From Candidatus Hydrogenedentota bacterium (GTDB taxonomy: Bacteria > Hydrogenedentota > Hydrogenedentia > Hydrogenedentales > JAEUWI01), in assembly GCA_019637335.1 (NCBI GenBank), contig JAHBVV010000001.1, forward strand, positions 377,440-441,439: a stretch of 64,000 bases of DNA. The letters are read 5' to 3'. Position 1 is the first letter of the stretch; every line of letters begins with the position of its first letter. A model generated the notes under the pieces. The model saw only the letters and a program-made list of their open reading frames with translations, did not search any database and was not told where the DNA came from. Of this stretch, positions 3,507 through 53,192 are shown in pieces. A program made the translations under genes and the position numbers.

Positions 3507-3574
3507 TTTTGGGGTAATTCTTTGGCCGTACGAAGTAGCGTCAAGTCTTAGAAGTAGCGCCAAGTCTTAATTGC

Positions 3575-3800
3575 CATCCCGCGATACTACGACGAGCGTT
3601 TACAAGGCTGGGAGCGCAAGCGCGTGCACCGGAGGTGCATGGAGCGTTCGTAATATCAGCACATTTGATCGGGAGGAAGACTGGACCCGGAGCACCGCCG
3701 TTGATCAGATTCGCGCCTCCGGCGCGATGCGGGCGGGCCGCCCGCGCTCCCATTCGTCCGCACTTCCGTTGCGGCGCGGGATTGTATCGTCGAGGAATCG
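3575..3800. repeat. Family-A ~230-bp dispersed element with conserved hairpins (copies also at 170-290 and 61030-61270)
   Basis: Shared core is gatactacgacgag...ggctgggagcgca.gcg...tgcaccggaggtgcatgg...gactggacccgga...attcgcgcc(tcc/ttc/gtc)ggcgcgatgcgggcgggccgcccgcgctcccatt.gtccgcacttccgttg. Hairpins tgcacc-gga-ggtgca and cgcgcc-NNN-ggcgcg are conserved, with loop-only variation. Confidence 0.7.
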
Positions 3801-3834
3801 AGCCAGCTTCATTCGGCTATAGAATTACCAAACT

Positions 3835-3965
3835 TCCAGCCCGAGCCGAGCGCCATCCGAGCCACAGGGAATATTGAAAAGGGCGCGTGTTGGATCGCTG
3901 GCGTTTCGCCCGCGGGCGAATCCCGGATCTTGGCGGCAGAGATGCCGGCGCTCCATCACGATCAC
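3835..3965. repeat. Family-B dispersed repeat (aaaagggcgcgtgttggatcgctgg..tttcgcccgcgggcgaatcccgga.cttg.cggcagagatgccggcgctcca), second copy at 25842-25965
   Basis: Direct comparison of the two loci shows about 85% identity over ~120 bp. Both copies lie upstream of + strand genes (acs and the ABC ATPase). Confidence 0.7.
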
Positions 3966-4225
3966 GCACATTGATTCAAGGCTCCAAATCAACTCAAGTT
4001 TACGCCCCAATGCCGGGATCGGGTTTAAATGCGAAGAGGCCCTGGTCCCCCGCGCTCCCGACATTGAATCCGCCCGCAAATTGTGTACAATAAACGGCTT
4101 AGTATCAGGCAAACACCCCGGCGCACCGTTTCCACATCATCCCGATTGATGCATCATGCGCCGGGCCGGAACGAGACCGCCCGCGCACCGCCCTTCCGGC
4201 GCCGCGCGGCGCACGGAGGAGAAGT

Positions 4226-6181
<1,956 letters not shown>

Positions 6182-6477
6182 TACCGTACGAAAACAAAAT
6201 CGGCGTGGCCGCCCCGATGTCCTCGGGGCGGCCACGCCGTCTTTTTATTGTCAGGATCCACTGGCCTTTCGCGGCCTGTGGGTTTCGGAATACCGCGACC
6301 CTGTTCCGTGAATTTCACGACCCGGTATTTCCAAATCTGCCTTATCCAAACCAAGTTGCCACCAGTCCAGGTAAGGAAGCGTCAAAGGCTGGGAGCGCAG
6401 GTCGAAGACGCGCCGTGGTGGGCGTCCCCGCCTGCCAGGCGGCGAAGCCGCCGTCCGTTATCATCCGTAATGGGTCG

Positions 6478-6900
6478 GGGGTACAGACGTCTGCGATTTT
6501 GGGGTGGTTGGTTGCCTGGCGCGCGACGGGACAGCCGCGCCGGTTGGCGGTGTTGTGGGTTGGTTGGGCTCGCTTTCGGTCGCGTGCGGGCTGTTGCTAC
6601 CTGAGGTGATGGGGCGCCGCAGTCCCTGGGGCGGGTGCGTGTTGCGCGGGGGGCGTTTTTCTGCGGGTACAGGCACCCGCGATTCTGGGGTGGTTTGGGG
6701 CGCTTTCGCGGCTGGGGTGGTTTTTGTCGCGGGCTCCAGTCCCCCTGGGGCACCCGCGATTCTGGGGTGGTTTGGGGCACTTTCGCGGCGTGGGTGGTTT
6801 TTGTCGCGGGCTCCAGTCCCCCTGGGGCACCCGCGATTTGGGGGGGGTGGGGCGCTTTCGCGGCTGGGGTGGTTGGCGTCGCGGGAGCCAGTCCCCATGG
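6478..6900. repeat. Tandem array of a ~77-bp unit (family C: cacccgcgattctggggtggtttggggcgctttcgcggctggggtggtttttgtcgcgggctccagtccccctgggg), 3 clean units plus 1-2 degenerate units
   Basis: Direct read. Related copies lie at 44262-44300, 45215-45400 (2 units), 45520-45590, 45738-45815 and 53111-53195. Confidence 0.85.
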
Positions 6901-7137
6901 TTGCAGTTGTGGTTTTAGAAAGTTGTCCGGCGCCGGACTTGTGCGGGTGATTGGCGGTTTTAACCTTGGGTCAGACAATCGACGCGCGGGGGTGTCTGGC
7001 AGTATCGTGGTGCGGAATAGCCGGCATACGCCCAGTGGTAATCCGCCAGTACAGAGCCCGCGTCTGAACGTTGAAAGGGGACGAGGTGGCAAACGCGATC
7101 GAAGTTTCCCCGTCAATCACCTACTTATAGGGATGGG

Positions 7138-7560
7138 GCGTTGCACTTTTTTAGGCTTTAGGCTTTAGGCTTTAGGCTGGAGGCTGGAGGCTTTAGGCTT
7201 TAGGCTGGAGGCTTTAGGCTTTAGGCTGGAGGCTTTAGGCTTTAGGCTGGAGGCTTTAGGGCACGGTCAAGCTACCGCGCGGCTGGGGCCGCGCCGCTTG
7301 GCCGTGGCACACCTGGAGGGGGCGGGGGCAGTTGACAGTTGACAGTTGACAGTTGACAGTTGACAGTTGACGGTTGACGGTTGACGAGTCACGGTTGACG
7401 GTTGACGGTTGACGGCTGGGACGGCTGGGACGGCTGGTAGGGCTGGGACGGCTGGTAGGGGAAGGACCTGTGGGACGGACCAAAAGGACGGCGGGGAGGG
7501 CGGGAGGGCGGGGAGGGCGGGAGGGCGGGGAGGGCGGGACGGCAGGGAGGTGGATGAGGA
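7138..7560. repeat. Cluster of four different microsatellites: the ggctttagg/ggctggagg 9-mer, the cagttga/cggttga 7-mer, the ggctgggac/ggctggtag 9-mer, and the ggcgggga/gggcggga array
   Basis: Direct read. 7141-7260 carries about 13 units, 7332-7418 about 12 units, 7418-7464 5 units, and 7490-7548 about 8 units. Confidence 0.9.
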
Positions 7561-8010
7561 GGCGATCGTGTTTCAGATCCGCTGGCAGCGGGAGCGCTGA
7601 TGTCTCCAGGAAGTGAATTGGCGGCGCCGGCGTTCATGACGCGTAGCGTCACCCGTTAGGGATGAAAAGCCGGCGGCTTCGCGACCGGTGCACAGCCGGG
7701 ACGGCTGTGCAACGTTCTTTGCACGCTTCACCTTGGTTTTTAAGAGTACCTTTAAAGGAATGTGGCGCAGGGGTCCCGCCTGTGTGTTTTCGGAGCAGCC
7801 ACCCCACATAACCCGCCTCCCTCTCTCCCACCACCGCCTCAGAAAAAATCCTTCAGATTCGTCGCATTCTCGATCGTCTCCCGTTTCGTGCGCAGAAACG
7901 CCAGAATAACCGCGCTCGCCGTCTGCGGCGTCTTGCTGACCGGGGAAATATGTTTCATGGATTGGCCTTTCCAGGGGCGCTGCCCCGCTGTCTCCTGTGG
8001 TTCCCGGGTA

Positions 8011-8388
8011 TTATGGGTCGTCACGCCGGACCGTTGCAATCGGCGCGCGCGCTTCGATCTCGTTCACCTTGGGCCTGCTGGCTTCCCGTATGGCGTCCAG
8101 CCGCGCCGACTTCCTTTCCCGGAGCTTGCGGCGGCGGCGGGGAAGCGCGAAAGCCGTAACCGCGCTCGCGGACAGTACAGTCAACCAGTAGGGCGATCCG
8201 GGAAAGGGGCTTAGAACAGTCACCAGGTAAGGGGGAGCAACCTGTTCCGCGGATGTCAACATTTGCGGCTCTCCCGTGAGGAACGCGATAGCCAGCAGCG
8301 TCAGCACGGGCAGCGTGACCGCCGCCGCCACGAAACAGATCAGGCGCACGGCCACCGCCGATACCACGGTCTCCCAGAATTTCGTCAT
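8011..8388 (-). CDS. Small hypothetical membrane protein, 125 aa with 2-3 TM helices
   Basis: ATG at 8386-8388 is preceded by GGAGG. The sequence MTKFWETVVSAVAVRLICFVAAAVTL is hydrophobic with a basic C-terminal tail. It is divergent from the NRAMP-like gene, with no family recognised. Confidence 0.3.
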   Translation of the reverse strand: MTKFWETVVSAVAVRLICFVAAAVTLPVLTLLAIAFLTGEPQMLTSAEQVAPPYLVTVLSPFPGSPYWLTVLSASAVTAFALPRRRRKLRERKSARLDAIREASRPKVNEIEARAPIATVRRDDP

Positions 8389-8503
8389 GTTGCCGCCTCC
8401 CGCCGGAATTTGGATACCTGCCAGAGCTTCCGATAAGCTTAGCACGTTTTTCGCGCGGCGCGCCCGCGCATGGGTCCAACCCGGGCAGGGAGAGAGCGCC
8501 AGT

Positions 8504-9916
8504 ATGGAAAACGAACAACACAAGACGCCCGCCGTCGCGGCGGCGCCGAAGGGGTGGATGCTCCTGCTGGCGCTGGGGCCGGGGCTGATGTGGTGTGGCG
8601 AGTATATCGGTTCGGGCGAGGTTATCCTCTCGACCCGCTCCGGGGCGATCTTTGGCGTGGCGGTGCTCTGGGTGCCGGTCATGGCCATCTTCGCGAAGTT
8701 TTGGATCGGCCTGGCGGGGGCGCACTACACCGTGACCACGGGCGAGGGCATGATCGACATGCTCGGGCGCATGCCCGGCCCGCGCAACTGGGTGCTCTGG
8801 CCGGTGTTCGCCGGGCAGGTCTGCGCCAGTATGATTTCCACCGCCGCGCTGGCCAGCGCATCGGGCGCCTTCGCGGCGTACTTCGTGCCCTGGGTCCGCC
8901 AGGAGATCTTCGCCTGGCTCTCGGTGCTTCTCGTTATCGCGGTGGTCTGGCGCGGGGGCTTCGAGCCGCTCAAACGCTTCATGTCGGTATTGGTGCTCAT
9001 GATTGTGGCTGGAACGGTTGCCGTGGCGCTGGCCACGTGGCCGGGCTTCAGCGCGATCGTCCACGGGCTCTTCGGTTTCGAGCTGCCCGAGACGCCGGCC
9101 TGGGCCAGCGGCGATGGCGGGTCCCCCTCGCCCTGGCTCGAAGTGCTCCCGCTGCTCGGCTGGGCGGCCGGTGGATTCGCCAGCCAGGTCTGGTACACCT
9201 ACTGGGTCCTCGGCGCGGGCTATGGCATGGCGCACGGGCGCGGCTACGGCAAGCCGCTGGACCCGGTACAGCTCCAGACCCTGGGCGCGGACGATGTGCG
9301 CCGAATCCGCGCCTGGCGCCGCGTGGTGACGCTCGATGCTTCCACGGCGCTGGTGGTGGGCACGTTGGTGACCATGGCCTTCATGATCGCGGGGGCGGGG
9401 GTACTCGGGCCGAAGCAACTCGCGCCCGATGGCGCCGAGGTCGCCCTCCAGCTCTCGCACCTCTTCAGCGAGCAGTGGGGGCGGGCCGGGGCGCATCTGT
9501 TTGTCCTGGCGGGCCTGGCGGGGATGCTGAGCACGATGATGGGCCAATTCGCCGGCTGGCCGCGGCTCCTGGCCGATTGCGCGCGGATCCTCTTCCCGGC
9601 GGTGAACCGTTGGGAGTGGAAGGTCCAGTTCCGATTCGCGCTTTTGTTCATCGCCGCATCCAACATGGTGATCGTCTACCAGTTGGGCCTCAAGCCGGTC
9701 TTCCTCGTAAAGATCGGCGCGGTTCTGGACGGCCTCCTGCTGACGCCGATCCAGGCCCTCGCCGTCGGCTGGGTGCTCTACAAGGTAATGCCGAAGTTCT
9801 TCGCGGAGGATCTCCGGCCGCTGGTCAAGCCCAGCCCCGTGCTGGCCGCAGGCCTTGCGCTGGCCTTCGTCTTGTTCAGTTTCGTGTGCGTATTTAAGTT
9901 GCGGGAATATTTTTAG
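8504..9916 (+). CDS. NRAMP/MntH-family-like divalent metal cation transporter, a distant member
   Basis: 470 aa and polytopic. The N-terminal LGPGLMWCGEYIGSGEVI resembles the NRAMP GPG...DPGN region, and the MLSTMMGQFAGW motif is present. An internal ATG at 8504 with a GGAGAG Shine-Dalgarno was chosen over the 8276 ORF start. Confidence 0.5.
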   Translation: MENEQHKTPAVAAAPKGWMLLLALGPGLMWCGEYIGSGEVILSTRSGAIFGVAVLWVPVMAIFAKFWIGLAGAHYTVTTGEGMIDMLGRMPGPRNWVLWPVFAGQVCASMISTAALASASGAFAAYFVPWVRQEIFAWLSVLLVIAVVWRGGFEPLKRFMSVLVLMIVAGTVAVALATWPGFSAIVHGLFGFELPETPAWASGDGGSPSPWLEVLPLLGWAAGGFASQVWYTYWVLGAGYGMAHGRGYGKPLDPVQLQTLGADDVRRIRAWRRVVTLDASTALVVGTLVTMAFMIAGAGVLGPKQLAPDGAEVALQLSHLFSEQWGRAGAHLFVLAGLAGMLSTMMGQFAGWPRLLADCARILFPAVNRWEWKVQFRFALLFIAASNMVIVYQLGLKPVFLVKIGAVLDGLLLTPIQALAVGWVLYKVMPKFFAEDLRPLVKPSPVLAAGLALAFVLFSFVCVFKLREYF

Positions 9917-11512: not shown

Positions 11513-12290
11513 CGAGGATTTGAATCGCGAATGGACGCGAATGGACACAGGGCAGCCTCTGGCCGCAACCAAAGAAATGATCACCACGAAGGGCACGAAG
11601 GGCACGAAGAAAAACAGAGAATAGCTTTAACCGCAGAGAACGCAGAGAGCGCATAGGGTGATTTCTGTTACGCAGATGGATTGGGTCGATGATCGAGAGC
11701 GCATTCTTAACCACGAATGAACACCAATGCACACGAATGCATCGGGAGCAGCCGCGGGCGGTGATCAAGAATTGTGCCCACGGATTGCACTGATGACACG
11801 GATTGAAAATAGAAGATGATTTCGGTTGTTGGGGTGTGCAGGCGACTGCGTGCTCTTTCCAAGGCAGCCTGATCGGATTGTTCAGCATCGGAATTGTAGC
11901 GGGGTTGATCGGGTGGCGGGCTACTTCTTCTCGTCTGGTTCGGGTGTCGCTTCAATCCGTGTCATCGGTGTAATCCGTGGGCAAGAAAAGAATTTCGACC
12001 ACGACACTGAACGGCCCGGAGATTCTCCCTGGGTTTTTCGCTTCGTAAATGCTTTTACAACAAACGTTTATATGGATTTTGAGCGAAAGAACTTGCAGAA
12101 AAAACAAGAAGTTGACGGATAGTAGTACGAAGGCCACGAAGAAAAGAAGTTGGAGAAGGAGTGCTATTAGCGCATAGGCGCAATTACGCAGATGAATTGG
12201 CGCACGCTTCAAAACTGCTTGAAGAGAGTGAACCACGAATTCACACGAATGGACACGAATGAAGATCTGAATTGAACGACGGCAATCCGG
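11513..12290. repeat. Modular word-repeat element, locus 1 (words CACGAAGG, CACGAATG, CGCAGAGAACGCAGAGAGCGCA, CACGGATTACAC)
   Basis: Shares long blocks with loci at 23.1, 33.2, 48.9 and 60.6 kb. An example block is gatcaccacgaagggcacgaaggccacgaaga...ttaaccgcagagaacgcagagagcgca. There is no ORF with protein-like composition. Confidence 0.75.
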
Positions 12291-12802: not shown

Positions 12803-14233
12803 TCAGCGGAATTGCAGGGCGTAGAGGTGGGCGTCTTTCATGATGAAGCGCAGGCGCACGGGCTTTCCGGAGAGCGCGCTGATGTCCTTGCTCTCGTTCC
12901 AGGTTACGGCGCGGGAGACTTCGTTGCCGATGATCTCGAAGCAGGCGTCCGCCTCGTAGCCGGGAATTACCACGCCGTCTCCGTCGAGGAGCTCGACCTT
13001 GATGCTGCCGGCGGCGGAGGTGGCGTAGTTCAGGTAGAGCGAGGTCCCTGAGAAGGTCAGGGTTTTTGTGATGAGCTCCCCGCCTTCATAGGGCGCCTCT
13101 ACGGCCGCGAAGCCGTCGGGCCGGAGGGAATAGCGCTGGAGTCCGGCGGTGGGCTGTCCGTAGTTTTTCTGGACGTAGAGCGAGATTTCGCGTTCGCCGG
13201 TGGGGACGATGCCCCAGGCGGGGTAGTTGGTGCGGGAGGTCCAGTTTTCGTAGCCGATGCCGGGCTTCAGGAAGCCGCCCATGAACTGGCGGTCGTAGGC
13301 GTAGCCGCCCCGGCTGGTCAGCAGGACGCTGTCGGAGCAGTCGCCGGAGTAGCGCGCTTCCACGCCGAACTCGGCGGCTTCCTGTTCGCTGACCACGCGG
13401 CGTCCGGGCATGAAGCGGGCAGCGACGGCCAGGTAGATGTGCGGGGCGCGGAAATAGGGGAGGGTCTGGTTGGTGTAGAGGTGTTCGCGGGGGGTGTGGC
13501 CGAAATCCATTTCTTTCGGCTCCGACCAGGTGACGAAATCGGGGGAGGTGGCGCGGCTCACGCTGCGGAAGCCCTTGAAGCCGCCCTGGTGCCAGGTGCG
13601 GAAATAGCAGACGTACTGCTGCTCGGTTTCCGACCAGAAGGCGACGTTCTGCGAGTCGAAGGCGCCGGCGGTGATCATGGGCTGATCCTGCAGCGTCCAG
13701 TGAATTCCGTCGGCGCTGTAGAACGCGTGCAGCCCGGTTTCGCTCGTGCCCGCGACCGCCTTGTATTGCTGATCCGCCGGGACGCCGGGGCGCGTATCGC
13801 GAAACGGCGCGAAATTGTGGGAGAAGGGGGCCTGATTGGCGATGATGATGTTGTTTTCCGAGGAGCCTTCGTATTCGTGCAGGCCGAGGGCGGGCTTCGT
13901 GAAGGACAGGCCGTCCGCGCTCTCCGCGTAGCAGGTCACTTCCCAGTCCGAGCCGTCCTTTCCGGCGAGCGGATTGCCCCGGTAGTACATCCGATATTTT
14001 CCGGCGTCCTCGAAGACGGTCACGTAGCCGCAGTAGCGTCCTTCCCAGGCGTCGTCGTAAGCGATGACGATCTCGCGGGGCTGCGGGGGCTGGAGTGCGA
14101 GGCGTGTATTGGCGAGGGTCTCGACGAGGTAGCCGTCCACGAAGAGTTCGAGGCGGTTTTCGAGGGGCAGGGGCTCGGCCGCGTGGGTGTGGAAGGCGGT
14201 CAGGAGGACGGCGAGTGCCAGGCAGTTGCGCAT
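12803..14233 (-). CDS. Secreted beta-propeller glycoside-hydrolase-like protein, family uncertain (GH43, GH32 or BNR-like)
   Basis: Signal peptide MRNCLALAVLLTAFHTHAAEP. The protein is 476 aa, Trp/Tyr/Gly-rich, with repeated blade-like segments. The family assignment was made by eye. Confidence 0.45.
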   Translation of the reverse strand: MRNCLALAVLLTAFHTHAAEPLPLENRLELFVDGYLVETLANTRLALQPPQPREIVIAYDDAWEGRYCGYVTVFEDAGKYRMYYRGNPLAGKDGSDWEVTCYAESADGLSFTKPALGLHEYEGSSENNIIIANQAPFSHNFAPFRDTRPGVPADQQYKAVAGTSETGLHAFYSADGIHWTLQDQPMITAGAFDSQNVAFWSETEQQYVCYFRTWHQGGFKGFRSVSRATSPDFVTWSEPKEMDFGHTPREHLYTNQTLPYFRAPHIYLAVAARFMPGRRVVSEQEAAEFGVEARYSGDCSDSVLLTSRGGYAYDRQFMGGFLKPGIGYENWTSRTNYPAWGIVPTGEREISLYVQKNYGQPTAGLQRYSLRPDGFAAVEAPYEGGELITKTLTFSGTSLYLNYATSAAGSIKVELLDGDGVVIPGYEADACFEIIGNEVSRAVTWNESKDISALSGKPVRLRFIMKDAHLYALQFR

Positions 14234-14326
14234 GGGAGGGCTCCAGAAGTTTTGCGGTTGTTATAACCAATTATACGGTCTGGGGCGGGGCGATACAAGG
14301 CAGGGGTGGCGTAGCCCTGGACAGCC

Positions 14327-14400
14327 GGGACGGCAGAGACAACAGGGACAACAGGGACAACAGGGACAACAGGGACAACAGGGACAACAGGGACCCGCCT
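14327..14400. repeat. Tandem 9-mer microsatellite (gacaacagg) with about 7 units
   Basis: Direct read of the sequence: gacaacagggacaacagggacaacagg... Confidence 0.9.
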
Positions 14401-14677
14401 GCGGCGGGCAGGCCTCGGGACGGCAGGGACGACTCCGCCGCCCTGGACAGCCGGGACGGCTATCCTACATTTTCGCGAATTGTTGCTTCCGCAGGCTGCC
14501 GTGTTGTGAATTCTGGTAGTGCGGAAAAGGTGCCATTGGGCAGGGGGCTGGGGTATGATCGGTGGCCTGGGGGATGTGGGCGGGATCGCCCCTCGGCGGG
14601 CGGCAGGCCCCGATCCGTACGTTTTTCTGGTTCTTGACGTGTGTCTATTTGCCGTAGCAGTACATTCAGGAGGTTTC

Positions 14678-15670
14678 ATGAAAAAGATTACTACCATCGC
14701 GGTGTCCGGACTTGGTTTTTGCCTGTTGTTTCCCGCCGCGGCGTCGGATTCGTTGCCGGCGCCGGCGAACCAGGTCATCGACTACCACACGGACATCGCG
14801 CCGCTGCTTCAGGAGCACTGCATCGATTGCCACGGTGCGGAGAAGCAGAAGTCGGACTACCGTCTGGACAACCGGGCGGACGCGATTGGCAGCGGTTCGG
14901 AGGGGGGCGCGATTGCGGTGGGGGACAGCGCGGGCAGCCTGCTGGTGCGGCTGATCACGGGGACGGACGACAACTTTGACATCATGCCGCCGAAGGGCGA
15001 CCCGTTGACGGCGGAGCAGGTGGGGCTGATTCGCGCGTGGATCGATCAGGGCGCGGTTTGGGAGGGTTCGGGCGACTCGGCGGCGGCTCCGATGGAGGAG
15101 CGCAACGACCGGGCGGCCTTTTCGGTGGCTGGTGGCGCTTGGGTTATCGAGGCGACGGCGCAGAAGGGGCCTCTGGCGGTGTGGGAAGCGGTTTCGGAGC
15201 AGGGGCCGGCGGGAGAGGCGTGCGTTGCGCTGACGAATCCGAACCACACGAGCGACGGGACGTTTAATCTGCTGTGGAACCCGGAGGCGGGGTTCAGGAA
15301 CGGCCGTATTGAGACGAGCCTGAAGGCCGTGTCCGGGGAGACGGATCAGGGCGGCGGGCTTATCTGGCGGGCGCGCGACAAGAACAACCACTACATCGCG
15401 CGGTATAACCCGGCCGAGAAGAACCTGCGGTTGTACGAATTGGTGGACGGGAAGCGGACGCAGCTGGCGAGCGCGGAAGTGGAGAAGCCGGAAGGTTCGT
15501 GGGCGGCGCTGGCGGTGGAGCACCAGGACAACCACATCACGGTGAGCCTGGATGGCAAGGTGCTGCTGGAGCACGATTCCAACACCTTCGGAGAAGCCGG
15601 GGGCGTCGGGCTGTGGACCAAGGCCGACGCGGCGACGGTGTTTACGCAGCCGGTTGTGCGGGCGGACTGA
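14678..15670 (+). CDS. Secreted Planctomycete-cytochrome-c (PSCyt1) domain protein with a C-terminal LamG/concanavalin-like domain
   Basis: AGGAGG lies 8 nt upstream of the ATG. Signal peptide MKKITTIAVSGLGFCLLFPAAA. Heme motif HCIDCHG. The C-terminal region looks like a beta-sandwich. Confidence 0.6.
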   Translation: MKKITTIAVSGLGFCLLFPAAASDSLPAPANQVIDYHTDIAPLLQEHCIDCHGAEKQKSDYRLDNRADAIGSGSEGGAIAVGDSAGSLLVRLITGTDDNFDIMPPKGDPLTAEQVGLIRAWIDQGAVWEGSGDSAAAPMEERNDRAAFSVAGGAWVIEATAQKGPLAVWEAVSEQGPAGEACVALTNPNHTSDGTFNLLWNPEAGFRNGRIETSLKAVSGETDQGGGLIWRARDKNNHYIARYNPAEKNLRLYELVDGKRTQLASAEVEKPEGSWAALAVEHQDNHITVSLDGKVLLEHDSNTFGEAGGVGLWTKADAATVFTQPVVRAD

Positions 15671-23074: not shown

Positions 23075-23900
23075 GGCGCGGGGCAGCCTGGGGCGCAACC
23101 AGGGAATTGATCACCACGAAGGGCACGAAGCCCACGAAGAAAAGCCGAGAGGAATTTTAACCGCAGAGAACGCAGAGAGCGCATACGTGGTGGGTGGGGG
23201 TACGCGGACGGATTGGGGTAATTGAATGGGGGCGCTTTTTAACCGCGAATGAACACGAATCAACGCGAATGCGCTGGGGGCAGCCTCTGGCCGGGGTCAG
23301 GAATTTTGACCACGGATTACACTGATGACACGGATAAAGGATCGAGCGGGTGGTTGTGGATTGCCGGGCGGCAGCGTGCGATTTTCGGGGCGGCCTGTTT
23401 GGGTTTTTCATCATCAGCATTGTAGCGGGGTTGATCGGTCGGCGGGCGGGAGCGGGACGCGGGGTTGCTGTGCGCGGGGGATTGAATTGGGAGCCACAGA
23501 GAGCACAGAGAACACAAAGAAAATGGAGCAGCAGCCGTTGGCCGCAATCGAAGAGGGTTCACCACGAAGGGGGCGAAGGGGGCGAAGGGAAACAGGGAAG
23601 AGTCGTTAACCGCAAAGAACGTAGAGAGCGCATAGGTGGTGGGTGGGGGTACGCGGACGGATTGGGGTGGTTGAATGGTGACGTTTTTTAACCGCGAATG
23701 AACACGAATCAATGCGAATGCGCTTGGAGCAGCCTCTGGCTGCGGTCGGGAATTTTGACCACGGATTACACTGATGACACGGATAAGAGAGGAATCGGGT
23801 CGTTGCGGGCGCCGGCGGCAGCGCGCGATTTTTTGAGTGATCTACTTGTTTTTTCACCATCAGCATTGTAGCGGGGTTAATCGGTCGGCGAGCGGCATCA
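23075..23900. repeat. Modular word-repeat element, locus 2, with an internal ~190-bp duplication (23160-23345 and 23606-23790)
   Basis: Same word modules as locus 1, for example ccgcagagaacgcagagagcgcata...ttttgaccacggattacactgatgacacggata. Confidence 0.75.
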
Positions 23901-29793: not shown

Positions 29794-32046
29794 ATGAGTT
29801 TCAAGAAACTGTTGCCTTTTCTCGCGGTGCTGGTTGTGCTCCTGCTGCTTGTTCTTATGAAGCGGGGCCTCCAGCGAACGCCTTCCCTGGAGACCCAGGC
29901 GAACCTGCAGCCACTCGTGGCGGCGGATCTGGGCGCGGCGGACATTGCGAAGCTGGAGCTCTACGCCGGGGCCGCGCCGGACGAGAAGGTGGTGTTGGAG
30001 AAGGCGGGCGATGCGTGGGTGGCCCGGAGCCATTTCGGCGCGCCCGTCAATGCGGACACGATCCAGGGGTATCTGGACAAGATCGAGAATCTGCAGGGCG
30101 AGTTCCGCGCCACGGCGCAGGGCGACGCCCAGCTGGCCAGCTATGATCTGAAGGAGGATCAGGCGTTCCGCGTGGTCGCGTACGCGGCGGGGAAGAACGA
30201 GCCCGCCGCGGATCTGCTCTTCGGGAAGGCGCCGAGCCACAGTTCGGTTTTTGTGCGGAAGGCGGGCGACACGACGGTGTATGTTGAGTCGAACAACCTG
30301 CGCCGCGAGGCGGGGCTCTTCGGCGAGGATCTTACGGAGGCCCCCAAGGCGGACAAGTGGCTCGACAAGACCGCGCTGTCGGTGGAGAAGGACACCCTGG
30401 CGAAGGTGAGCATCACGACGCCGGACAAGTCGCTGGTGTTTGAGAAGCGCGTGACGGAGGTTCCGCAGCCGGAACCGGCCGAGGGCGAAGAAGCGCCCGA
30501 AGCGCCCGCGGCGCCCCAGGTGGAAGAGGAATGGATTCTTACGGCCGGCGGCGCGGAGAAGACCTACAAGGACAACGCGCTGCAGGGCGTGTTCAATCGG
30601 CTCGCCTCGCTTACGGCGTCGAATATTGTCGACCCGTCGAAAAAGGCGGAGTGGGGGCTGGAGACGCCGGGCTTCACGCTCGCCGCGGCGCCCGCGGAAG
30701 GTGACGAGATCGTCATCGAGGGGGGGCGTCCCGATCTCGCCGGCGTGGGGTACATCCGCGTGGCCAGCAACGAGCGGGACGTGGTGTATGAGCTGAGCGC
30801 CTACAACTTCGATCAGCTTTTCCCGAAGGGGTCTTCGCTGATGGATCTTCCGAAGTGGGACGTGCCTCAGGAGGAAATTACGGGGATTACCATCGATCAG
30901 CCCGAGGGCCGGATTGTGCTGGCGAAGCAGGGCGAGAAGTGGTCTGTGGTGGAACCCGCTAGCAGCCTGAAGGTGCAGCAGCCGGCGATCGATGGACTCG
31001 TCAGCGCGGTGTCGGCGTGGACGCCCGGCGACTATGCGGACGGGGCCGCGGAAACCGGCGCGTTTAACCGGTCGGTGCAGGTGACGGCGGGCGGTTCCGT
31101 GCGGAGTTTCTCGATCGCGGACGACGCGCGGGGGTCCGAGGGCGTGTATGCGCGCATGGACAGCGACAGCGAGATTTATGTGATGAAGACCGCGGACAAG
31201 TCGAAGGTTTTCCTCAAGCCGCGCGACGTGTTCCAGCTGGCGCTGTTTGACCTGACCGCGGGCGACGTCACGCGGCTCGACGCGCGGGCGGAAGGGCAGG
31301 CCGTTTCGCTGCGCCAGGGCGAGGCGGGCGCGTGGACCATCGAGATGGACGGCGCGACCTTTGAATCGCCCGGTGACGAGGCGGCCAACCTGCTTTCGGT
31401 GCTGCTGGACCTTGAAGCGGCCGACGTGAACTTTGGCGGCGCGCCATCGGGCGTGACGGAAGCGGGGGCCTTCACGATCACCACCCGCAACGGCGCGTCG
31501 CGCCTGCTGGTCTACGGCGAAGAGAACGAAGGCGTACACCCGGTGTCGGTGAGCGGGATGCAGAACACGTTTACGGTCGCCGCCGCCGATCTGGACCGTC
31601 TCCTCACGGCGCTGAACGCGGTGAAGGACGCCCGGGGCGAAGCCGCGCCCGCCGCAGCGCCTGCAGCGGAAGCGCCCGCTACGGAAGCGCCTGTGACGGA
31701 AGCGCCCGCTACGGAAGCGCCTGCGACCGAAGTCCCCGCAGCGGAGGCGCCGGCGGTGGAAGAACCCGCAGCGGAAGCGCCTGTGACTGAAGCGCCTGCT
31801 GCCGAAGTCCCCGCAGCGGAAACGCCTGTGACTGAAGCGCCTGCTGCCGAAGCGCCTGCCACGCAGGAACCCGCAGCCGAAGCGCCCGCAGCGGAAGCGC
31901 CCGCAGTGGAGGCCCCCGCAGTGGAGGCCCCCGCAGCGGAAGCGCCTGCCGCCGAAGCGCCTGCCGCCGAAGCGCCTGCCGCCGAAGCGCCGGCGGTGGA
32001 AGAACCCGCGGCGGACGCATCAACACCGGAGACGCCGGCGGAGTAA
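29794..32046 (+). CDS. DUF4340-like periplasmic protein with an N-terminal TM anchor and a C-terminal E-A-P-A-T pentapeptide tandem array
   Basis: TM helix LLPFLAVLVVLLLLVLM. The gene follows the GldG-like gene, as DUF4340 proteins typically do. About 27 units of a 15-nt repeat encode EAPAT, EAPVT or EAPAA at 31630-32040. Confidence 0.55.
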   Translation: MSFKKLLPFLAVLVVLLLLVLMKRGLQRTPSLETQANLQPLVAADLGAADIAKLELYAGAAPDEKVVLEKAGDAWVARSHFGAPVNADTIQGYLDKIENLQGEFRATAQGDAQLASYDLKEDQAFRVVAYAAGKNEPAADLLFGKAPSHSSVFVRKAGDTTVYVESNNLRREAGLFGEDLTEAPKADKWLDKTALSVEKDTLAKVSITTPDKSLVFEKRVTEVPQPEPAEGEEAPEAPAAPQVEEEWILTAGGAEKTYKDNALQGVFNRLASLTASNIVDPSKKAEWGLETPGFTLAAAPAEGDEIVIEGGRPDLAGVGYIRVASNERDVVYELSAYNFDQLFPKGSSLMDLPKWDVPQEEITGITIDQPEGRIVLAKQGEKWSVVEPASSLKVQQPAIDGLVSAVSAWTPGDYADGAAETGAFNRSVQVTAGGSVRSFSIADDARGSEGVYARMDSDSEIYVMKTADKSKVFLKPRDVFQLALFDLTAGDVTRLDARAEGQAVSLRQGEAGAWTIEMDGATFESPGDEAANLLSVLLDLEAADVNFGGAPSGVTEAGAFTITTRNGASRLLVYGEENEGVHPVSVSGMQNTFTVAAADLDRLLTALNAVKDARGEAAPAAAPAAEAPATEAPVTEAPATEAPATEVPAAEAPAVEEPAAEAPVTEAPAAEVPAAETPVTEAPAAEAPATQEPAAEAPAAEAPAVEAPAVEAPAAEAPAAEAPAAEAPAAEAPAVEEPAADASTPETPAE
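31630..32040 (+). repeat. In-frame 15-nt tandem repeat array (gaagcgcctgc[ct]gcc variants) inside the DUF4340-like CDS
   Basis: Direct read; near-identical units encode a PAxEA-type low-complexity tail. Confidence 0.85.
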
Positions 32047-33164: not shown

Positions 33165-34360
33165 GTCACACGGTTATTTCACCGGCGCAGCGATCGCATG
33201 ACGTCTTGCGCTCCTTGTGCCGCGAGCAGGAATGAGTGAAAGTCCGCAGGGCAGCCTTGGTCCGCAAGCAAAGAAATGATCACCACGAAGGGCACGAAGG
33301 CCACGAAGGAAAGAAGTTGACGAAGGATTGATACGCACGCGAAGGCGCAAAGGAGATGATCGGGGGCGCGACGCGCGGTCAGGGCGGGCGGGGGACTGGA
33401 TTTGGAGCCACAAAGAGCGCAAAGAACACAAAGTACACGGGAGCGCCTCTGGGCGGAACCAAGGAATTGATCAGCGCAAGGGCACGAGGGATACGAAGAG
33501 GAAGAGAGACGAAGCTTTGACCGCAGAGACCGCAGAGACCGCAGAGACCGCAGAGACCGCATAGGGTGATTTCTTGTACGCAGATGGATTGGGTGGATGA
33601 TCGAGAGAGTGCATTCTTAACCACGAATAAACACCAATGCACACGAATGCATCGGGAGAAGCGGCTGGCCGCGATCAGGATTTTTGACCACGGATTACAC
33701 GGATTACACGGATAGAGAATGATTTCGGTCGTTGGGGTGTGCAGGCGGCTGCGTGTTGCTTCCAAGGTGGCCTGTTCGGATTGTTCAGCATCGGAATTGT
33801 AGCGGGGTTTATCGGGTGGGCGGGGGATTGGATTTGGAGCCACAAAGAGCGCAAAGAACACAAAGAACACGAGAGCGCCTCTGGGCGGAACCAGGGAATT
33901 GATCAGCGCAAGGGCGCGAGGGATAAGAAGAGGACGAGAGACGAAGCTTTGACCGCAGAGAACGCAGAGAGCGCATAGGGTGATTTCTGGTACGCAGATG
34001 GATTGGGCGGATGATCGAGAGAGTGCATTCTTAACCACGAATGGACACCAATGCACACAAATGCGCCCGGAGAAGCGGCTGGCCGCGATCAGGATTTTTG
34101 ACCACGGATTACACGGATTACACGGATAGAAAATGATTCCGGTCGTTGGGGTGTGCAGGCGGCTGCGTGCTGATTCCAAGGTGGCCTGTTCGGATTGTTC
34201 CGTATCGGAATTGTAGCGGGGTTAATCGGGTGGGCGGGGGATTGGATTTGGAGCCACAAAGAGCGCAAAGAACACGAAGAATACGGGAGCGCCTCTGGGC
34301 GGAACCAAGGAATTGATCAGCGCAAGGGCACAGGGCGGCCGTTGGCCGGAACCAAACAAA
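33165..34360. repeat. Modular word-repeat element, locus 3, with three copies of a ~300-bp unit
   Basis: Units at about 33400-33720, 33830-34110 and 34240-34340 share gggggattggatttggagccacaaagagcgcaaagaaca...gaattgatcagcgcaagggc. A tandem ccgcagaga x4 lies at 33520-33560. Confidence 0.75.
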
Positions 34361-35097
34361 GTTGAACCGCGAATTAACGCGAAAGGACACGAATGAAGAA
34401 AGGATGGTCTCGCTTTGGGAATTCGCGGCGGTATTCACGGCATCAATGGGCCGTTCGAACCCGGCGCTCACGCTGTCTCGGGCTGGAAGCCCAAGCCACG
34501 TTGGCGCGGGTGGAACGATTTGGGTTGTTTGTGGCGGCGCGACGGCTGTGTCGAAAATGGGCCGGAGCATTGTGTGGCGTGGGTTGGGTTGGGGCTTGAC
34601 GTGTGTGGAATCCGGGGTTGCGACAGGGGGAGTATGGGCTTTTGGGAACCTGGGGTTGATTTGCCGCAGACAGGAATGTCCGCGATCCTCGCCTGCGGCG
34701 CTTGGACAGCCGGGACGCCTATCCTACATTTGCGCCTGGCGGCGCTGAACACAGCCGGGACGGCTGTGCCACTTTCTTTTCGAGGTGGTTTTGGTGGGGT
34801 CAGGGGGAACTTTTTGGAGGCGGGCTCACTTTGCCGCAGACAGGAATGTCCGCGATCCATTGCGCCTGCGGCGCTTGGACAGCCGAGGCATGCATTCACA
34901 ACGGGGGGGCTCATTCCACTCGGGTGTTATGTTTTTTCAGAGGCGCCTATGCGGCTTTTCGCGCGCAGTAACCGTAAAGCCGTAAAAAATCAACGGAATA
35001 AATTTGTACTTGCATAATTATTCAATCTGCGCTACCATGGATTAACGAACAGTCAGGGCTGCGGCATTACAACGGGCGAGCGGGTATCGCCCCGGCT

Positions 35098-43962: not shown

Positions 43963-44323
43963 GCATGGGAAGGCGTGGCGCGGGGGTGGTGGGCCCCGGG
44001 TCGCGCCGGGGGTGATTATTCCATATGGGCCCTGGCCGGGTAAAGTGGCGGGCTGGACTGGCGGGTACAGCGTTTCATGACGCTTCGGGTCACGTCACCC
44101 ATTAAGAATGAAAATGGACGGCGGCTTCGCCGCCTGGCAGGCGGGGACGCCCACCACGGCGCGTCTTCGACCTGCGCTCCCAGCCTTTGCCGCTTCCTTG
44201 GGAGAGATGCTGTAATCTGGTTTGTATGAGGCGGTTGTAGTGATGCCGAGGTTTTTTCAGAGCAGGCTCCCGCGATTTTGAGGTGGTTGGCGGCGCCTTT
44301 GCGCTCCGCCTGTTGTATCGGGA

Positions 44324-45079
44324 TTAAAAGCCGCCTTGTTGTCGCATGGCGTCTTCCATGGCGCGCATTATGGCGGGGTCCATGCCTTCCATCATGTTCT
44401 GGAGCTCGCCGAGGATGGCTTCGGGGTTTTCGAAGTCGAGGGTCATGCTCATTCCGGGGGCGGGGAGCATGCGGAGGGCGTGTACGCGCCATTGGCCGGC
44501 TTCGTGGCGGAGGAGGACTTCGTTGGGCATGCTGTGGCCGAATTGGGTTACGTTGAGGGCGACGCGCGCGCTGTTTTCGCTGGTTGTGGCGGCGCCGACG
44601 GTGAAGTTTTCGAATTGCTGGAGCGCGAAGTGCATCTGGTTGAAGTGTTGCCAGGAGGCTTCGGTGAGGTAGGGGCGACAGGCTTCGGGGCCGCCGGTGT
44701 TGAGGGCGTCCATGAACTGTTGGGTGATTTGCTCGGGCGCGGGTTTGCTGAAACCCGAAAGCGGGAGTTGGGTGGCGGCGAGGGCGACGATGGCGATGAT
44801 CGCGGCGACTCCGAGGAGGATGGCGGCGGGCTTGAGGAGGGGCTGGAGTGTGTCGCCGAGGCCGGGTGTGGCGACGACGGGGCGGGGGCGCTGGTTTTCG
44901 CGGGAGAGGCTGGCTTCGAGGGCGCTGGCGAGATCGGCCGGGAGCGAGGCGGGTCCGGCGTTGGCGGCGGCGGGCACGACGATGCGCGCACCGCATTTGC
45001 GGCATGCGCCGGCTTGTCCGGCATACTGATCGGGGATGTCGAGTGTCTCGTTACAGTGCGGGCAGGTCATCTGGATCAT
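44324..45079 (-). CDS. Hypothetical protein with an N-terminal zinc ribbon (CPHC...CRKC), one TM helix and a C-terminal periplasmic domain
   Basis: The sequence MIQMTCPHCNETLDIPDQYAGQAGACRKCGARIVV is followed by TM helix AAILLGVAAIIAIVALAA. GAGGGAG Shine-Dalgarno present. The longer 447-aa ORF upstream runs through repeat DNA and was rejected. Confidence 0.5.
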   Translation of the reverse strand: MIQMTCPHCNETLDIPDQYAGQAGACRKCGARIVVPAAANAGPASLPADLASALEASLSRENQRPRPVVATPGLGDTLQPLLKPAAILLGVAAIIAIVALAATQLPLSGFSKPAPEQITQQFMDALNTGGPEACRPYLTEASWQHFNQMHFALQQFENFTVGAATTSENSARVALNVTQFGHSMPNEVLLRHEAGQWRVHALRMLPAPGMSMTLDFENPEAILGELQNMMEGMDPAIMRAMEDAMRQQGGF

Positions 45080-45859
45080 GGTGGTTTCTCCCTCGTTGGC
45101 CCCCCTGTACCGGGCCGGTTGATCGCGTGGGTGCGTGGGTACCGCTTGTTTGTCAGTATATGGCTTTAATACGCTTGATACCAGCGTTTTATTCGTGATC
45201 TGTGGCGGGGGGTGGGGGCGGGTACAGCCACCCGCGAATTTGGGGTGGTTGGCGGCGCTTTCGCGGCTGGGGTGGTTGTTGTCGCGGGAGGCAGTCCCCT
45301 TGTTGGGGGTACAGCCACCCGCGAAATTGGGGTGGTTGGCGGCGCTTTCGCGGCTGGGGTGGATGTCGTCGCGGGATGCAGTCCCCTTGTTGGCGGGGAG
45401 AGGCGCACTGGGGAAAATCGCTACAGTGGTGTTGTGTTGGAGGTGTGGGGTAGTTGGTGCTCCGGGCACACGAACGGGCGTTGCCCGATCGCGCGGCACG
45501 GTGTGTGTCGCGGCGGTTTGGTACGCCTTCGCGGCTGGGGTGGTTGTTGTCGCGGGAGGGAGTCTCCTTTTTAGCGGGTACAGCCTTTCATGACGCGTTG
45601 CGTCACCCGTTAAGGTTGAAATACTGCTCGTGACTGTTGGCGCTCTTCTGGAGTCTCGCACGCTCAAGCCTTCGCGGCGGAGCCGCGGAGCTTGAACGTG
45701 GCACCCGCGGCTCGTTTTGAAATTTCGGAGCAGCCACCCGCGAGTTTGGTGTGTTTGGGGCGCTTTCGCGGCTGGGGTGGTTGTTGTCGCGGGAGGCAGT
45801 CCCCTCGGGGGCGGCGCGCGTCACGGCAGGTTGCCGCCGGTAGTCGCGGAATCTATAGT

Positions 45860-48859: not shown

Positions 48860-50120
48860 AAAATCGGTAACAGTTTAGCCGTCTGAAGCAAGGAAGAATT
48901 TCAACCACGAATGCACACAGGGCAGCCGCTGGCCGTAACCGAGGAAGGGACCACCACGAAGGTCACGAAGGTCATGAAGAAAAACAGAGAAGAGCTTTGA
49001 CCGCAGAGAGCGCAGAGGGTGTTGTTGTGCGCGTACGGACCGGTGCGGTTGAATGAGGGCGAGTTTTTTGACCACGAATGGACACCAATGCACACGAATG
49101 CGCCGGGAGCAGCAGCTGGCCGCGATCAGGAGTTGTGACCACGGATTACACAGGGCAGCCTTGGGCCGCAACCCAAGAAAATGATCACCACGAAGTGCAC
49201 GAAGGTCACGAAGAAAAACAGAGAATAGCTCTAACCGCAGAGAACGCAGAGAGCGCAGAGGATCGCTCTTGTACGCAGATGAAGTAGTTGGTTGAATGAG
49301 GGTGCGTTCTTGACCACGAATGGACACCATTGCACACGAATGCGCCGGGAGCGGCGGCCGCCGCGATCAGGAGTTGTGACCACGGATTACACTGGGCAGC
49401 CTCTGGCCGCAACCAAGGAATTGATCACCACGAAGGGCACGAAGGCCACGAAGAGAAAGAGAGACGAAGTTTTGACCGCAGAGAACGCAAAGAGCGCAAA
49501 GGGTGATTTCTTGTACGCGGATGGATTGGGTGGATTATCGAGAGCGCATTCTTAACCACGAATGAACACCAATGCACACGAATGCATCGGGAGCAGCCGC
49601 GGGCAGCGATCAGGATTTGTGACCACGGATTACACGGATGACACGGATTGCAATTGGTTCCGGTCGTTGAGGCGTGCCGTCGGCGGCGTGCGATTTTCGA
49701 CGTAGCCCGTTCGGATTGTTCAGCATCGGAATTGTAGCGGGGTGGAATGGGTGGCGGGCTGCTCGGTCTCATATTGTTCAAGCGCCGCGGCAATCCGTGT
49801 CATCGGTGTAATCCGTGGTCAATAGAAGAATACCGGCCACGACATTCATGGGACGGTCCGGAAATTCTCCTTGGAGTTTCCAATTCGTAAATGCTTTTAC
49901 AACAGATTGTTATGGAGGTATTGCGCGCAAGAACTTGCAGAAAAAACAAGAAAATGACGGATAGTAGTACGGATGACACGGATAGAAAATGATCTCGGTC
50001 GTTGGGGTGTGCAGGCGGCTGCGTGCGATTTTCGATGTGGCCTGTTCGGATAGTTCAGAAAATCGGTAAATCTTTGGCCGTATGAAGTTGAGTAGCAGTT
50101 TAACCACGAATGGACACGAA
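48860..50120. repeat. Modular word-repeat element, locus 4
   Basis: Four consecutive units each contain ...accacgaaggtcacgaagg...ccgcagagaacgcagagagcgca...aaccacgaatggacacc(a/t)(a/t)tgcacacgaatgc... Confidence 0.75.
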
Positions 50121-50551
50121 CGGACACGAATAAGAAGCCGAAATTCAGTTCAAGCAGCCTTTTCCCAGGCCCGCAGCCAGGCATCCAAGCAACGAGAAAC
50201 CTGATTGGCCGCGGAGAACATAGATCAACCTTTCGCCGCAACGAAGGAGTTGTTCCAGGAATCCACGCAGACACCAACTGGCGCCCGCCTTCCGGCCTCT
50301 ACTTTTTATCTGTGGGGTTCTCTGCAAACCTGTGGGAATATTCTGCTCTTCAAGAGATCAAAGGCGGACCTGTTATCGTTCCATTTGAGTCCTCGAACCC
50401 GGTCAATAGTCTCTCTTATTCGTGTGAATTCGTGTTCATTCGTGGTTGATAAGCTTCTTTGCCTCAGACGGCCAAACTGTTACGAAAATCGATAAAATCT
50501 CGATTTATGGCGCAAAATTTGCCAAATTACGGATTTTTCTGAATAATAGAG

Positions 50552-52825: not shown

Positions 52826-53192
52826 CCCACTTCCTTCAAACCCCGCAAAAAGGGCGCGTTGGGCAACGTGCGGGGAACCGCGGCGGCGTACCCGAGTGTT
52901 TGTTAGAAGTTTACCCGGCGGACCACTTGTGCTGTCAAGGGAGGGCGGAAGTTTGCGGGGGTGTTGGGGGCGTTGCGGTTACGGGCGTTCGTGGCGTCTT
53001 GCGCCAGCCGTTGGGGATGAAAATGGACGGCGGCTTCGCCGCCTGGCAGGCGGGGACGCCTGCGCTCCCAGCCTTTGCAGCTTCCTTGGGAGAGATGCTG
53101 TGGGCCTTGCGGGTACAGGCACCCGCGATATGGAGGCAGGCTTGGACGCTTTCGCGGCCGGGGTGGTTCTTGTCGCGGGAGGGAGTCCCCCG

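Follow-up and report, generated by a model that had tools for sequence, protein, structure and literature searches.

Why does a bacterium carry more than a kilobase of crowded tandem repeats in a single gap between genes? This question is raised by a 64-kb stretch of DNA from a Candidatus Hydrogenedentota bacterium (hereafter the window), in which a region of about 1.1 kb (6478-7560) lying 3' of the acetyl-CoA synthetase gene acs is occupied by a pile-up of repeats. The original prediction described this region as a 77-bp repeat followed by four unrelated microsatellites, and offered as explanations either a contingency spacer or the graveyard of a repeat-generating process. Having called the arrays with Tandem Repeats Finder and dissected them unit by unit, we find that the pile-up is real and not random, and that palindromic mini-elements are heaped up in it with short tandem repeats made by slippage. 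We consider it rather probable that it arose by lineage-specific accretion, within a convergent gap free of promoters, of hairpin elements resembling REPINs or miniature inverted-repeat transposable elements (MITEs), together with compound microsatellites grown by slippage.

Anatomy of the repeat pile-up

The density of arrays in this region is far above chance expectation, and the original claim that the pile-up is genuine is borne out. When 6182-8275 was shuffled 200 times under a first-order Markov model, arrays with a score of at least 45 appeared at a mean of 0.025 per region, against 4 non-overlapping rows in the real region, where the 9-mer row is absorbed by its neighbour. The window contains 6 non-coding short-period arrays scoring at least 85, and 4 of these start within 420 bp of one another, a degree of clustering with a chance probability of P = 6e-4 in a simulation over the roughly 19 kb of intergenic DNA. 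In loci of other phyla totalling 859 kb, scores this high are rare, being reached by 14 of 185 arrays.

The pile-up opens with the 77-bp repeat, called at 3.0 copies (6672-6900, 89% matches, score 367). Three clean units had been reported and are recovered; the one or two degenerate units said to accompany them prove to be one expanded degenerate unit, 6479 to about 6632. Its first 31 nt (6479-6509) agree with those of the 77-bp unit consensus at 27 of 31 positions, while its diverged middle and 3' parts were followed by eye to about 6632. The short-unit arrays come next, and for these the periods first assigned (9, 7, 9 and 7/8 nt) need to be replaced by 7 (or 21), 7, 9 and 17. As called by the program, array 1 (7150-7260) consists of 15.9 copies of the heptads TTTAGGC/TGGAGGC and is better described by a 21-bp superunit (5.3 copies at 93%), array 2 (7331-7415) of 12.1 copies of the heptad (C/G)AGTTGA, array 3 (7411-7455) of 5 copies of the 9-mer GACGGCTGG, and array 4 (7486-7550) of 3.8 copies of the 17-mer (8+9) GGACGGCGGGGAGGGCG; the dissected units are given in Table 1. 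Within array 2 the hexamers TTGACA and TTGACG occur 5 and 6 times, respectively.

Arrays 2, 3 and 4 are contiguous and their units mostly break between GAC and GG, so these arrays are not fully independent of one another. The four short-unit arrays therefore make up one compound microsatellite, and calling them unrelated was an overstatement. Their units are confined to this locus, as all 11 copies of TTTAGGC and all 6 copies of CAGTTGA on the plus strand of the window lie inside the arrays. The pile-up region is non-coding: the open reading frames (ORFs) that span the repeats (6382-7116 on the minus strand and 6635-7168 on the plus strand) show neither codon-position GC periodicity nor a Pfam match. 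No Rfam family was found at the pile-up, and in the whole window only a tRNA-Arg passes its gathering score; the best match within 6100-8600, to CrfA over the acs terminator, scores 29.6 bits, below the gathering score of 38.

The composition of the region is strongly strand-biased. GC skew of the window's plus strand is +0.12 and is positive in genes of both orientations, and since this holds even for minus-strand genes the plus strand is probably the leading strand; over 6400-7700 the skew rises to between +0.22 and +0.53. The original prediction had pointed to possible G-quadruplexes in a G-rich tract. The highest G4Hunter score in the window, 2.64, indeed falls on array 4 (7482-7554), where three consecutive canonical motifs are predicted at 7493-7547, each with at least four runs of three or more Gs and loops of 1-7 nt. 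Across the window, the plus strand has 16 potential quadruplex motifs against 3 for the minus strand.

Other identities considered for the region were set aside. A replication origin finds no DnaA-box cluster, the only box with at most one mismatch in the region lying at 6342 (5 in the whole window), and a promoter scan returned no promoter in or after the TTGACA-bearing array. Readings of GGGGAGGG and GCTGGTGG-like motifs as Chi-like sites or as FtsK-orienting polar sequences (KOPS) were also considered, with the motifs counted over the 64 kb.

Dispersed palindromic elements and GGGAC-loop hairpins

The 77-bp unit belongs to a dispersed family, here termed family C, whose core TTCGCGGCYGGGGTGGNTNNNGTCGCGGG occurs 8 times in the window, in all 8 cases on the plus strand, and never in shuffled sequence. 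The copies that had been noted at 44.26, 45.2-45.8 and 53.1 kb are all confirmed. A full unit carries the head GGGTACAG and two inverted arms, GGGtACaGsCaCCCGCGA and TCGCGGGaGgCaGTcCCC. The spacer between the arms is about 45 nt long and contains two copies of TGGGGTGGTT, one on each side of CGCTTTCGCG. The ends of the unit are thus imperfect inverted repeats of about 18 nt on a non-coding unit of 77-87 bp, in the manner of the terminal inverted repeats of MITEs, and all copies lie outside ORFs with codon periodicity or Pfam matches. From seven copies RNAalifold predicts 16 pairs with an invariant core stem of 7 bp, and fold z-scores range from -1.1 to -3.2 on the minus strand and are about 0 on the plus strand. 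One pair is compensated: where the 6.7-kb copies have G-C, those at 45 kb have C-G. As this represents a single evolutionary event, it lends weak support to maintained symmetry. In its layout, family C suggests a REPIN/MITE-like palindromic element.

A second family, family X, lies directly 5' of family C at three loci, in plus orientation at 44.1 and 53.0 kb and in minus orientation at 6373-6475. Alignment of its copies gives the layout GGGTACAG-CGTTTCATGACGC..GCGTCACCCGTTAAGGATGAAAA.., so that the two families have a head pattern, GCGGGTACAG, in common. The sequence GGGTACAG is found 7 times in the window against 0.74 expected by chance, every time on the plus strand and every time in the form (GC)GGGTACAG, that is, with GTAC and not GTAG. 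The common head suggests that one trans-acting enzyme served both families, and a shared head, hairpin bodies and a uniform strand are what single-strand transposition of the HUH type would be expected to leave behind.

Local duplication has also shaped these elements. Units 2 and 3 of the 77-bp array lack the GTACAG head, which argues that they arose by duplication in place and not by new insertion; at 45220-45393 the duplication takes in the entire 87-bp unit together with its spacer. The 45-kb cluster lies in the gap between the divergent genes 44336-45079 (minus strand) and 46024 (plus strand). The former looks like a real gene lacking annotation (GC content at third codon positions, GC3, 0.81; a transmembrane segment; no Pfam match), whose product has a zinc-ribbon-like N-terminus, MIQMTCPHCNETLDIP...CRKCGARIVVP. 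Two longer ORFs that overlap it, 44016-45005 and 44324-45667, are spurious.

The 3' side of the pile-up is marked by small hairpins with a GGGAC loop. The hairpin CACAGCCGGGACGGCTGTG (CACAGCC-GGGAC-GGCTGTG) occurs at 7691-7709 and again at 34750-34768, with a variant at 7766-7784, and both forms are shared with intergenic sites right behind genes in related genomes. The loop and 3' arm of this hairpin together give exactly the unit of array 3, GGGACGGCT(G); because of this identity, at least one of the arrays, and perhaps several, were probably seeded by slippage at hairpin cores. A 19-nt GC-rich hairpin with a GGGAC loop, matching CACAGSCGGGACGSCTGTG, is present in at least 120 stretches of GTDB representative genomes from many phyla, the matches listed including Phycisphaerae, other Planctomycetota, Chthoniobacterales, Hydrogenedentota, Acidobacteriota, Desulfobaccales and others. 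Some of these loci are tandem, as in L056 with 6 copies at a period of 41. A literature search found no paper on repeats of Hydrogenedentes and none containing the hairpin sequence. Elsewhere in the window, an array of 8.4 copies of GGACAACAG at 14319 (region 14310-14476) lies in the divergent gap between 12803-14233 (minus) and 14519-15670 (plus), with half-hairpins GACAGCCGGGACGGC at its start and about 50 bp past its end; these are followed by ..TATCCTACATTT, a motif present also at 34700-34735.

These features point to two processes. In one, small non-coding palindromic elements would have inserted and then been duplicated locally in tandem, their mobilisation depending on one trans-acting enzyme of the single-strand type (HUH/Y1, IS200/IS605 or RAYT), and units 2-3 of the 77-bp array would have arisen by slippage or unequal exchange. 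In the other, slipped-strand mispairing would have created and extended the compound microsatellite at 7150-7550, with the variant blocks and the 21-bp superperiod as a record of its stepwise growth and the 9-mer GGGACGGCT array as one that a hairpin element probably seeded.

The pile-up does not stand alone but is the most extreme instance of a tendency that runs through the genome. Self-BLAST finds 7.5 kb (11.7%) of the window to be repeated, nearly all of it intergenic; at least 7 intergenic gaps of 0.8-2.8 kb, the pile-up among them, are filled with repeats, and no more than about 69% of the window is taken up by listed genes, a low coding density for a bacterium. The original remark that such a region is unusual for a bacterium thus holds in general but not for this genome and its relatives, where arrays are commonplace. 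Self-BLAST also places repeats upstream of acs (3539-4034). A composite interspersed repeat with units of about 240-414 bp, mostly in plus orientation, recurs at 11538-12265, 23077-23895, 33245-34399, 48867-50058 and 60617-61445, and is built of triplets of the 9-10-mers CACGAAGGG, CGCAGAGAA, CACGAATGCA and CACGGATTA with short GC hairpins between them; inverted triplets about 280 bp apart, 50088-50134 (plus) and 50418-50447 (minus), resemble terminal inverted repeats. Repetition within a coding sequence is seen in a DUF4340/extensin-like gene (29794-32046), where a 15-bp tandem repeat (31645-32015, 23 copies, 73% matches) would encode a C-terminal region with a period of five residues.

Table 1. 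Features of the acs-Nramp interval and family-C copies elsewhere in the window.
Feature	Position	Strand	Description
acs (acetyl-CoA synthetase)	4226-6181	+	Upstream flanking gene; Pfam ACAS_N, AMP-binding, AMP-binding_C
Bidirectional intrinsic-terminator-like hairpin of acs	6201-6239		17-pair stem, T-runs on both strands; terminator scan
Family-X element	6373-6475	-	Head truncated, abuts first family-C unit; self-BLAST and alignment with 44.1- and 53.0-kb copies
Degenerate expanded family-C unit	6479-6632	+	Head GGGTACAG; extent past 6509 judged by eye on alignment
Three clean family-C units	6665-6903	+	Periods 77 and 75 bp; core matches at 6705, 6782, 6857
Unique spacer	6904-7149		No repeat, ORF or RNA family match
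Array 1	7150-7260	+	16 heptads: TTTAGGC x4, TGGAGGC x2, (TTTAGGC x2 TGGAGGC) x3, TTTAGGG; 21-bp higher-order period
GC-rich spacer	7261-7328		Short inverted repeats and G-run GGAGGGGGCGGGGG; G4Hunter 1.7
Array 2	7329-7412	+	12 heptads: CAGTTGA x6, CGGTTGA x2, CGAGTCA, CGGTTGA x3
Array 3	7409-7467	+	Degenerate 9-mers GGGACGGCT / GGTAGGGCT, contiguous with array 2
Array 4	7486-7550	+	17-mer GG(A/C)GGGCGGGGAGGGCG, 3.8 copies; three consecutive canonical G-quadruplex motifs (predicted)
Family-X-like 5' module	7620-7720	+	TTCATGACGC..GCGTCACCCGTTAGGGATGAAAA, ends in hairpin CACAGCCGGGACGGCTGTG (7691-7709)
Second hairpin variant GAATGTGGCGCAGGGGTCCCGCCTGTG	7753-7784		91% match in relatives L001 and L006, at intergenic sites directly behind genes
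39-aa ORF, status uncertain	7839-7958	-	Shine-Dalgarno-like GGAAAGG; converges on pile-up; no Pfam match
125-aa ORF, probable membrane protein	8011-8388	-	Shine-Dalgarno GGGAGG; GC3 0.76; hydrophobic N-terminus; divergent from Nramp-like gene; no Pfam match
Nramp-like transporter	8504-9916	+	Pfam Nramp, E = 4e-11; likely start ATG 8504 after GGGAGAG
Partial family-C copy (5' half)	44263-44303	+	Just 3' of plus-strand family-X copy 44063-44215
Family-C cluster	45220-45811	+	2 x 87 bp tandem 45220-45393; 3'-half copy 45488-45574; solitary copy 45725-45811
Solitary family-C copy	53111-53197	+	Directly 3' of family-X copy 53015-53102; ends at stop codon of murJ (minus strand)

Genomic setting and comparison with relatives

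The pile-up lies between convergent transcription units, with acs and its terminator on one side and the minus-strand ORFs 8011-8388 and 7839-7958 on the other (GC content of the latter at the three codon positions, 0.45/0.42/0.70). For the Nramp-like gene beyond them, a long-ORF start at 8276 is probably too far upstream. The only obvious gap that could bear its promoter is the putative one at 8389-8503, at least about 840 bp from the pile-up.

No second assembly of the organism was found, as the exact acs protein has no record and neither GTDB representatives nor JGI metagenomes contain the family-C core. The best homologue of the acs protein is 89% identical, the top homologues range from 85 to 89%, and many from 85% downward are named Candidatus Hydrogenedentes or Hydrogenedentota. 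We therefore compared the locus with five relatives whose acs is 85-89% identical, including the 7.9-Mb chromosome OW818658.1. The spacer is absent from all five. A NUDIX gene follows acs after only 137-405 bp in the four relatives whose contigs reach the next gene, and Cpn10-Cpn60-Ank precedes acs in the four whose contigs extend far enough upstream. The window has only acs and its promoter in common with this neighbourhood, and tblastn detected in it no remnants of 17 genes from the relatives' acs surroundings. Because the relatives lack the spacer and have short acs-NUDIX gaps, the 2.1-2.3-kb spacer is a lineage-specific gain. The shared acs promoter is conserved in seven genomes (window 4064-4093 and L001-L006) as TTGAWTC-N16-TGTGTACAAT; its -10 side reads TGTGTACAATAA, with an extended -10 and then the Shine-Dalgarno sequence GGAGGAG, and the remaining upstream region is not conserved.

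Analogous arrays change copy number between genomes that are about 90% identical. L001 and L006, which are 91-95% identical to each other, carry AGCCTTC/AGCCTTT at an orthologous site at the 3' end of a DeoR gene, in 2.9 copies in L001 (14976-14995) and 16.1 copies in L006 (7431-7543). The reverse complement of this heptad is NNAGGCT, with the same core as array 1, and a 9-mer array abuts it there too. Likewise, ATGGKTCKT behind the Cpn60 terminator counts 6.6 copies in L001 (7144-7203) and about 2 in L003 (around 7415-7435). The pile-up itself is likely to be length-polymorphic. The non-coding, lineage-specific character of the pile-up, its palindromic elements and compound microsatellites, and the lability of the relatives' arrays fit the earlier suggestion of slippage substrates and a graveyard of a repeat-generating process.

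Several arrays in the relatives form inverted pairs beside terminators, like MITE ends made of tandem 9-mers. NNAGGCT arrays of at least 4 copies are frequent in metagenome contigs with a GC content of 27-68% among the matches listed (L127-L246), and mixed AA/GA heptad arrays like that of L006 recur in metagenomes, for example as 13 copies in L204. As the AGGCT core alone was scanned and no control core was included, this indicates only that such arrays are widespread.

Competing explanations and known systems

Several observations weigh against accretion of mobile hairpin elements and slippage-grown arrays. No target-site duplications are evident around the solitary copies 45725-45811 and 53111-53197, the family-C core (26 specified bases) has 0 exact matches in GTDB representatives and JGI metagenomes, and the plus-strand bias of the elements comes from only 4-5 independent loci. 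None of the roughly 35 ORFs scanned in the window, 64 kb of a probably multi-Mb genome, encodes a transposase, a RAYT or a Y1_Tnp domain, and the head of the elements, with GTAC in place of GTAG, speaks against mobilisation of the REP (repetitive extragenic palindromic) type. The RAYT-like process named in the original prediction is thus only a lead, to which the strand bias and the shared head point and which the GTAC of the head and the lack of such a transposase in the window do not favour. The link from hairpin to array is an identity of 9-10 nt; in 120 loci from other phyla, 29 of 185 arrays lie within 300 bp of a hairpin against a rough expectation of about 20, and this mild enrichment is not used as support, so that seeding is something we infer. 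Over 1.3 kb the plus strand is strongly and uniformly rich in G, with skew up to +0.53, and this could reflect selection. A dedicated regulatory role is not supported, and the pile-up may have no dedicated function.

A rival explanation is a functional zone of structured DNA or RNA, in which a G-rich non-template strand forming quadruplexes or R-loops, or a C-rich, G-poor antisense transcript serving as a Rho-utilisation tract, would insulate the convergent units, or in which iteron-like arrays would bind a lineage-specific DNA-binding protein. We regard this as unlikely. The top G4Hunter score with its tandem motifs and the position between convergent genes are in its favour, as are the skew, which would give a minus-strand RNA a C:G ratio of 1.6-3.2, and the recurrence of heptad and 9-10-bp arrays as inverted pairs by terminators in relatives. 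The abundance of NNAGGCT heptads in metagenomes also fits, although that scan had no control core. However, the relatives manage with their short acs-NUDIX gaps, acs already has a strong bidirectional terminator, and the array units are unique to this locus in the window and not conserved in sequence.

Similarly improbable, in our judgment, is a rearrangement scar or decayed mobile island, whereby the repeats would mark a synteny break where the ancestral Cpn60-Ank-acs-NUDIX neighbourhood was replaced, and the arrays would be the decayed ends of larger elements. Both flanks of acs do differ from those of all five relatives while its promoter is retained, and repeats are found upstream of acs as well. 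Yet no pseudogene remnants of the 17 neighbourhood genes and no integrase or transposase among the scanned ORFs accompany the break, and the proposal largely overlaps accretion rather than replacing it.

A more speculative proposal, to which we give little credence, is that the arrays and GGGAC hairpins are products or signals of an undescribed strand-oriented system that Hydrogenedentota share with bacteria of the PVC (Planctomycetota-Verrucomicrobiota-Chlamydiota) type. Such a system could consist of an enzyme acting on single-stranded DNA, with the GGGTACAG head or the GGGAC hairpins as its recognition sites and hairpin cores as the source from which it seeds tandem 7-10-mers. It could also consist of iteron-like arrays to which a lineage-specific protein binds, with a role in organising the chromosome or in termination.

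Slightly less credible still is the contingency spacer first proposed, a phase-variation locus at which slippage would switch or tune the Nramp-like transporter or the small minus-strand ORFs. The arrays are long and fairly pure (6 perfect CAGTTGA and 4 perfect TTTAGGC units), analogous arrays vary in relatives, and array 2 repeats TTGACA, the -35 hexamer of sigma-70 promoters, in a lineage that uses promoters of this type. Nevertheless, the arrays lie outside any ORF, the promoter scan returned no -35/-10 pair for the region's plus strand, and a terminator-like hairpin (7689-7711) and two minus-strand ORFs stand between the arrays and 8389-8503, the likeliest promoter gap of the Nramp-like gene. 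This distance and the convergent setting make a contingency switch unlikely, and four different units in series are unlike known phase-variable genes. Least likely of all is an artefact of mis-assembled, collapsed or expanded repeats, for although low-complexity arrays are error-prone in assemblies and a second assembly for checking is lacking, the ordered internal variants, the unique flanks, the other family-C copies in different unique contexts and the similar arrays in independent assemblies of relatives all speak against it.

If accretion of hairpin elements and slippage-grown microsatellites is correct, the pile-up should be polymorphic in length and have no direct on/off effect on adjacent genes. 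The significance would be mainly descriptive: an uncultured Hydrogenedentota lineage with a large genome tolerates long, repeat-filled intergenic gaps. The arrays would make good markers for strain typing by variable number of tandem repeats (VNTR), and the shared head and strand bias give a way into the search for the mobilising enzyme in the whole genome. That the 9-mer array is linked to a hairpin core known from many phyla hints at how bacterial microsatellites get seeded, though by itself it opens no long-standing question.

Among known systems, the closest in layout are the REP/REPIN elements mobilised by RAYT transposases (Bertels & Rainey, PMC3116915, PMC3337134; REPIN definition from PMC3337134). 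Like REPINs, family C is short and extragenic, and has two inverted arms around a spacer with the potential to form a long hairpin. Single copies, doublets and clusters are all represented, a short conserved head stands 5' of the palindrome, and the family seems to be restricted to this lineage. It differs in that the head GGGTACAG has GTAC where REP has GTAG, and its arms do not clearly correspond to REP singlets. The cognate RAYT of REP elements is a single-copy gene flanked by the repeats, whose copies run to tens to hundreds per genome; the 64 kb show 8 family-C cores and no RAYT gene. All copies seen share one orientation, and units are multiplied in tandem with periods of 75-87 bp. MITEs and palindromes derived from IS200/IS605 offer a second parallel. 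They too are small and non-coding, are bounded by terminal inverted repeats and show a bias in how they are oriented to the probable replication strand, whereas family C has no recognised target-site duplication, conserved target or autonomous parent, and its bias comes from the few loci mentioned above. Single-strand transposition coupled to replication was reportedly described for IS200/IS605 by Ton-Hoang et al. in 2010.

For the short arrays, the nearest parallel is the short tandemly repeated repetitive (STRR) heptanucleotide arrays of cyanobacteria, said to have been described by Mazel et al. in 1990 with units CCCCAGT, TTGGTCA and CAACAGT. Both are intergenic tandem heptamers (16 and 12 heptads here) with several unit types per genome and no known function; the phylum and the units differ, and each unit is found here at one locus in 64 kb, in contrast to the dispersed STRR units. 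The simple sequence repeats of contingency loci in Haemophilus, Neisseria and Campylobacter lie within ORFs or in the spacing of the -35 and -10 elements of a promoter. The pile-up shares their slippage-prone short tandem units, but these lie in a gap between convergent units, at a distance from all starts and promoters. Finally, with minisatellites of the VNTR/MIRU (mycobacterial interspersed repetitive unit) type and with compound microsatellites there is no sequence relationship to the pile-up units, but there is a likeness in the tandem units of 77-87 bp, in the abutting arrays built of variant blocks and in the variable copy number at the analogous loci of relatives.

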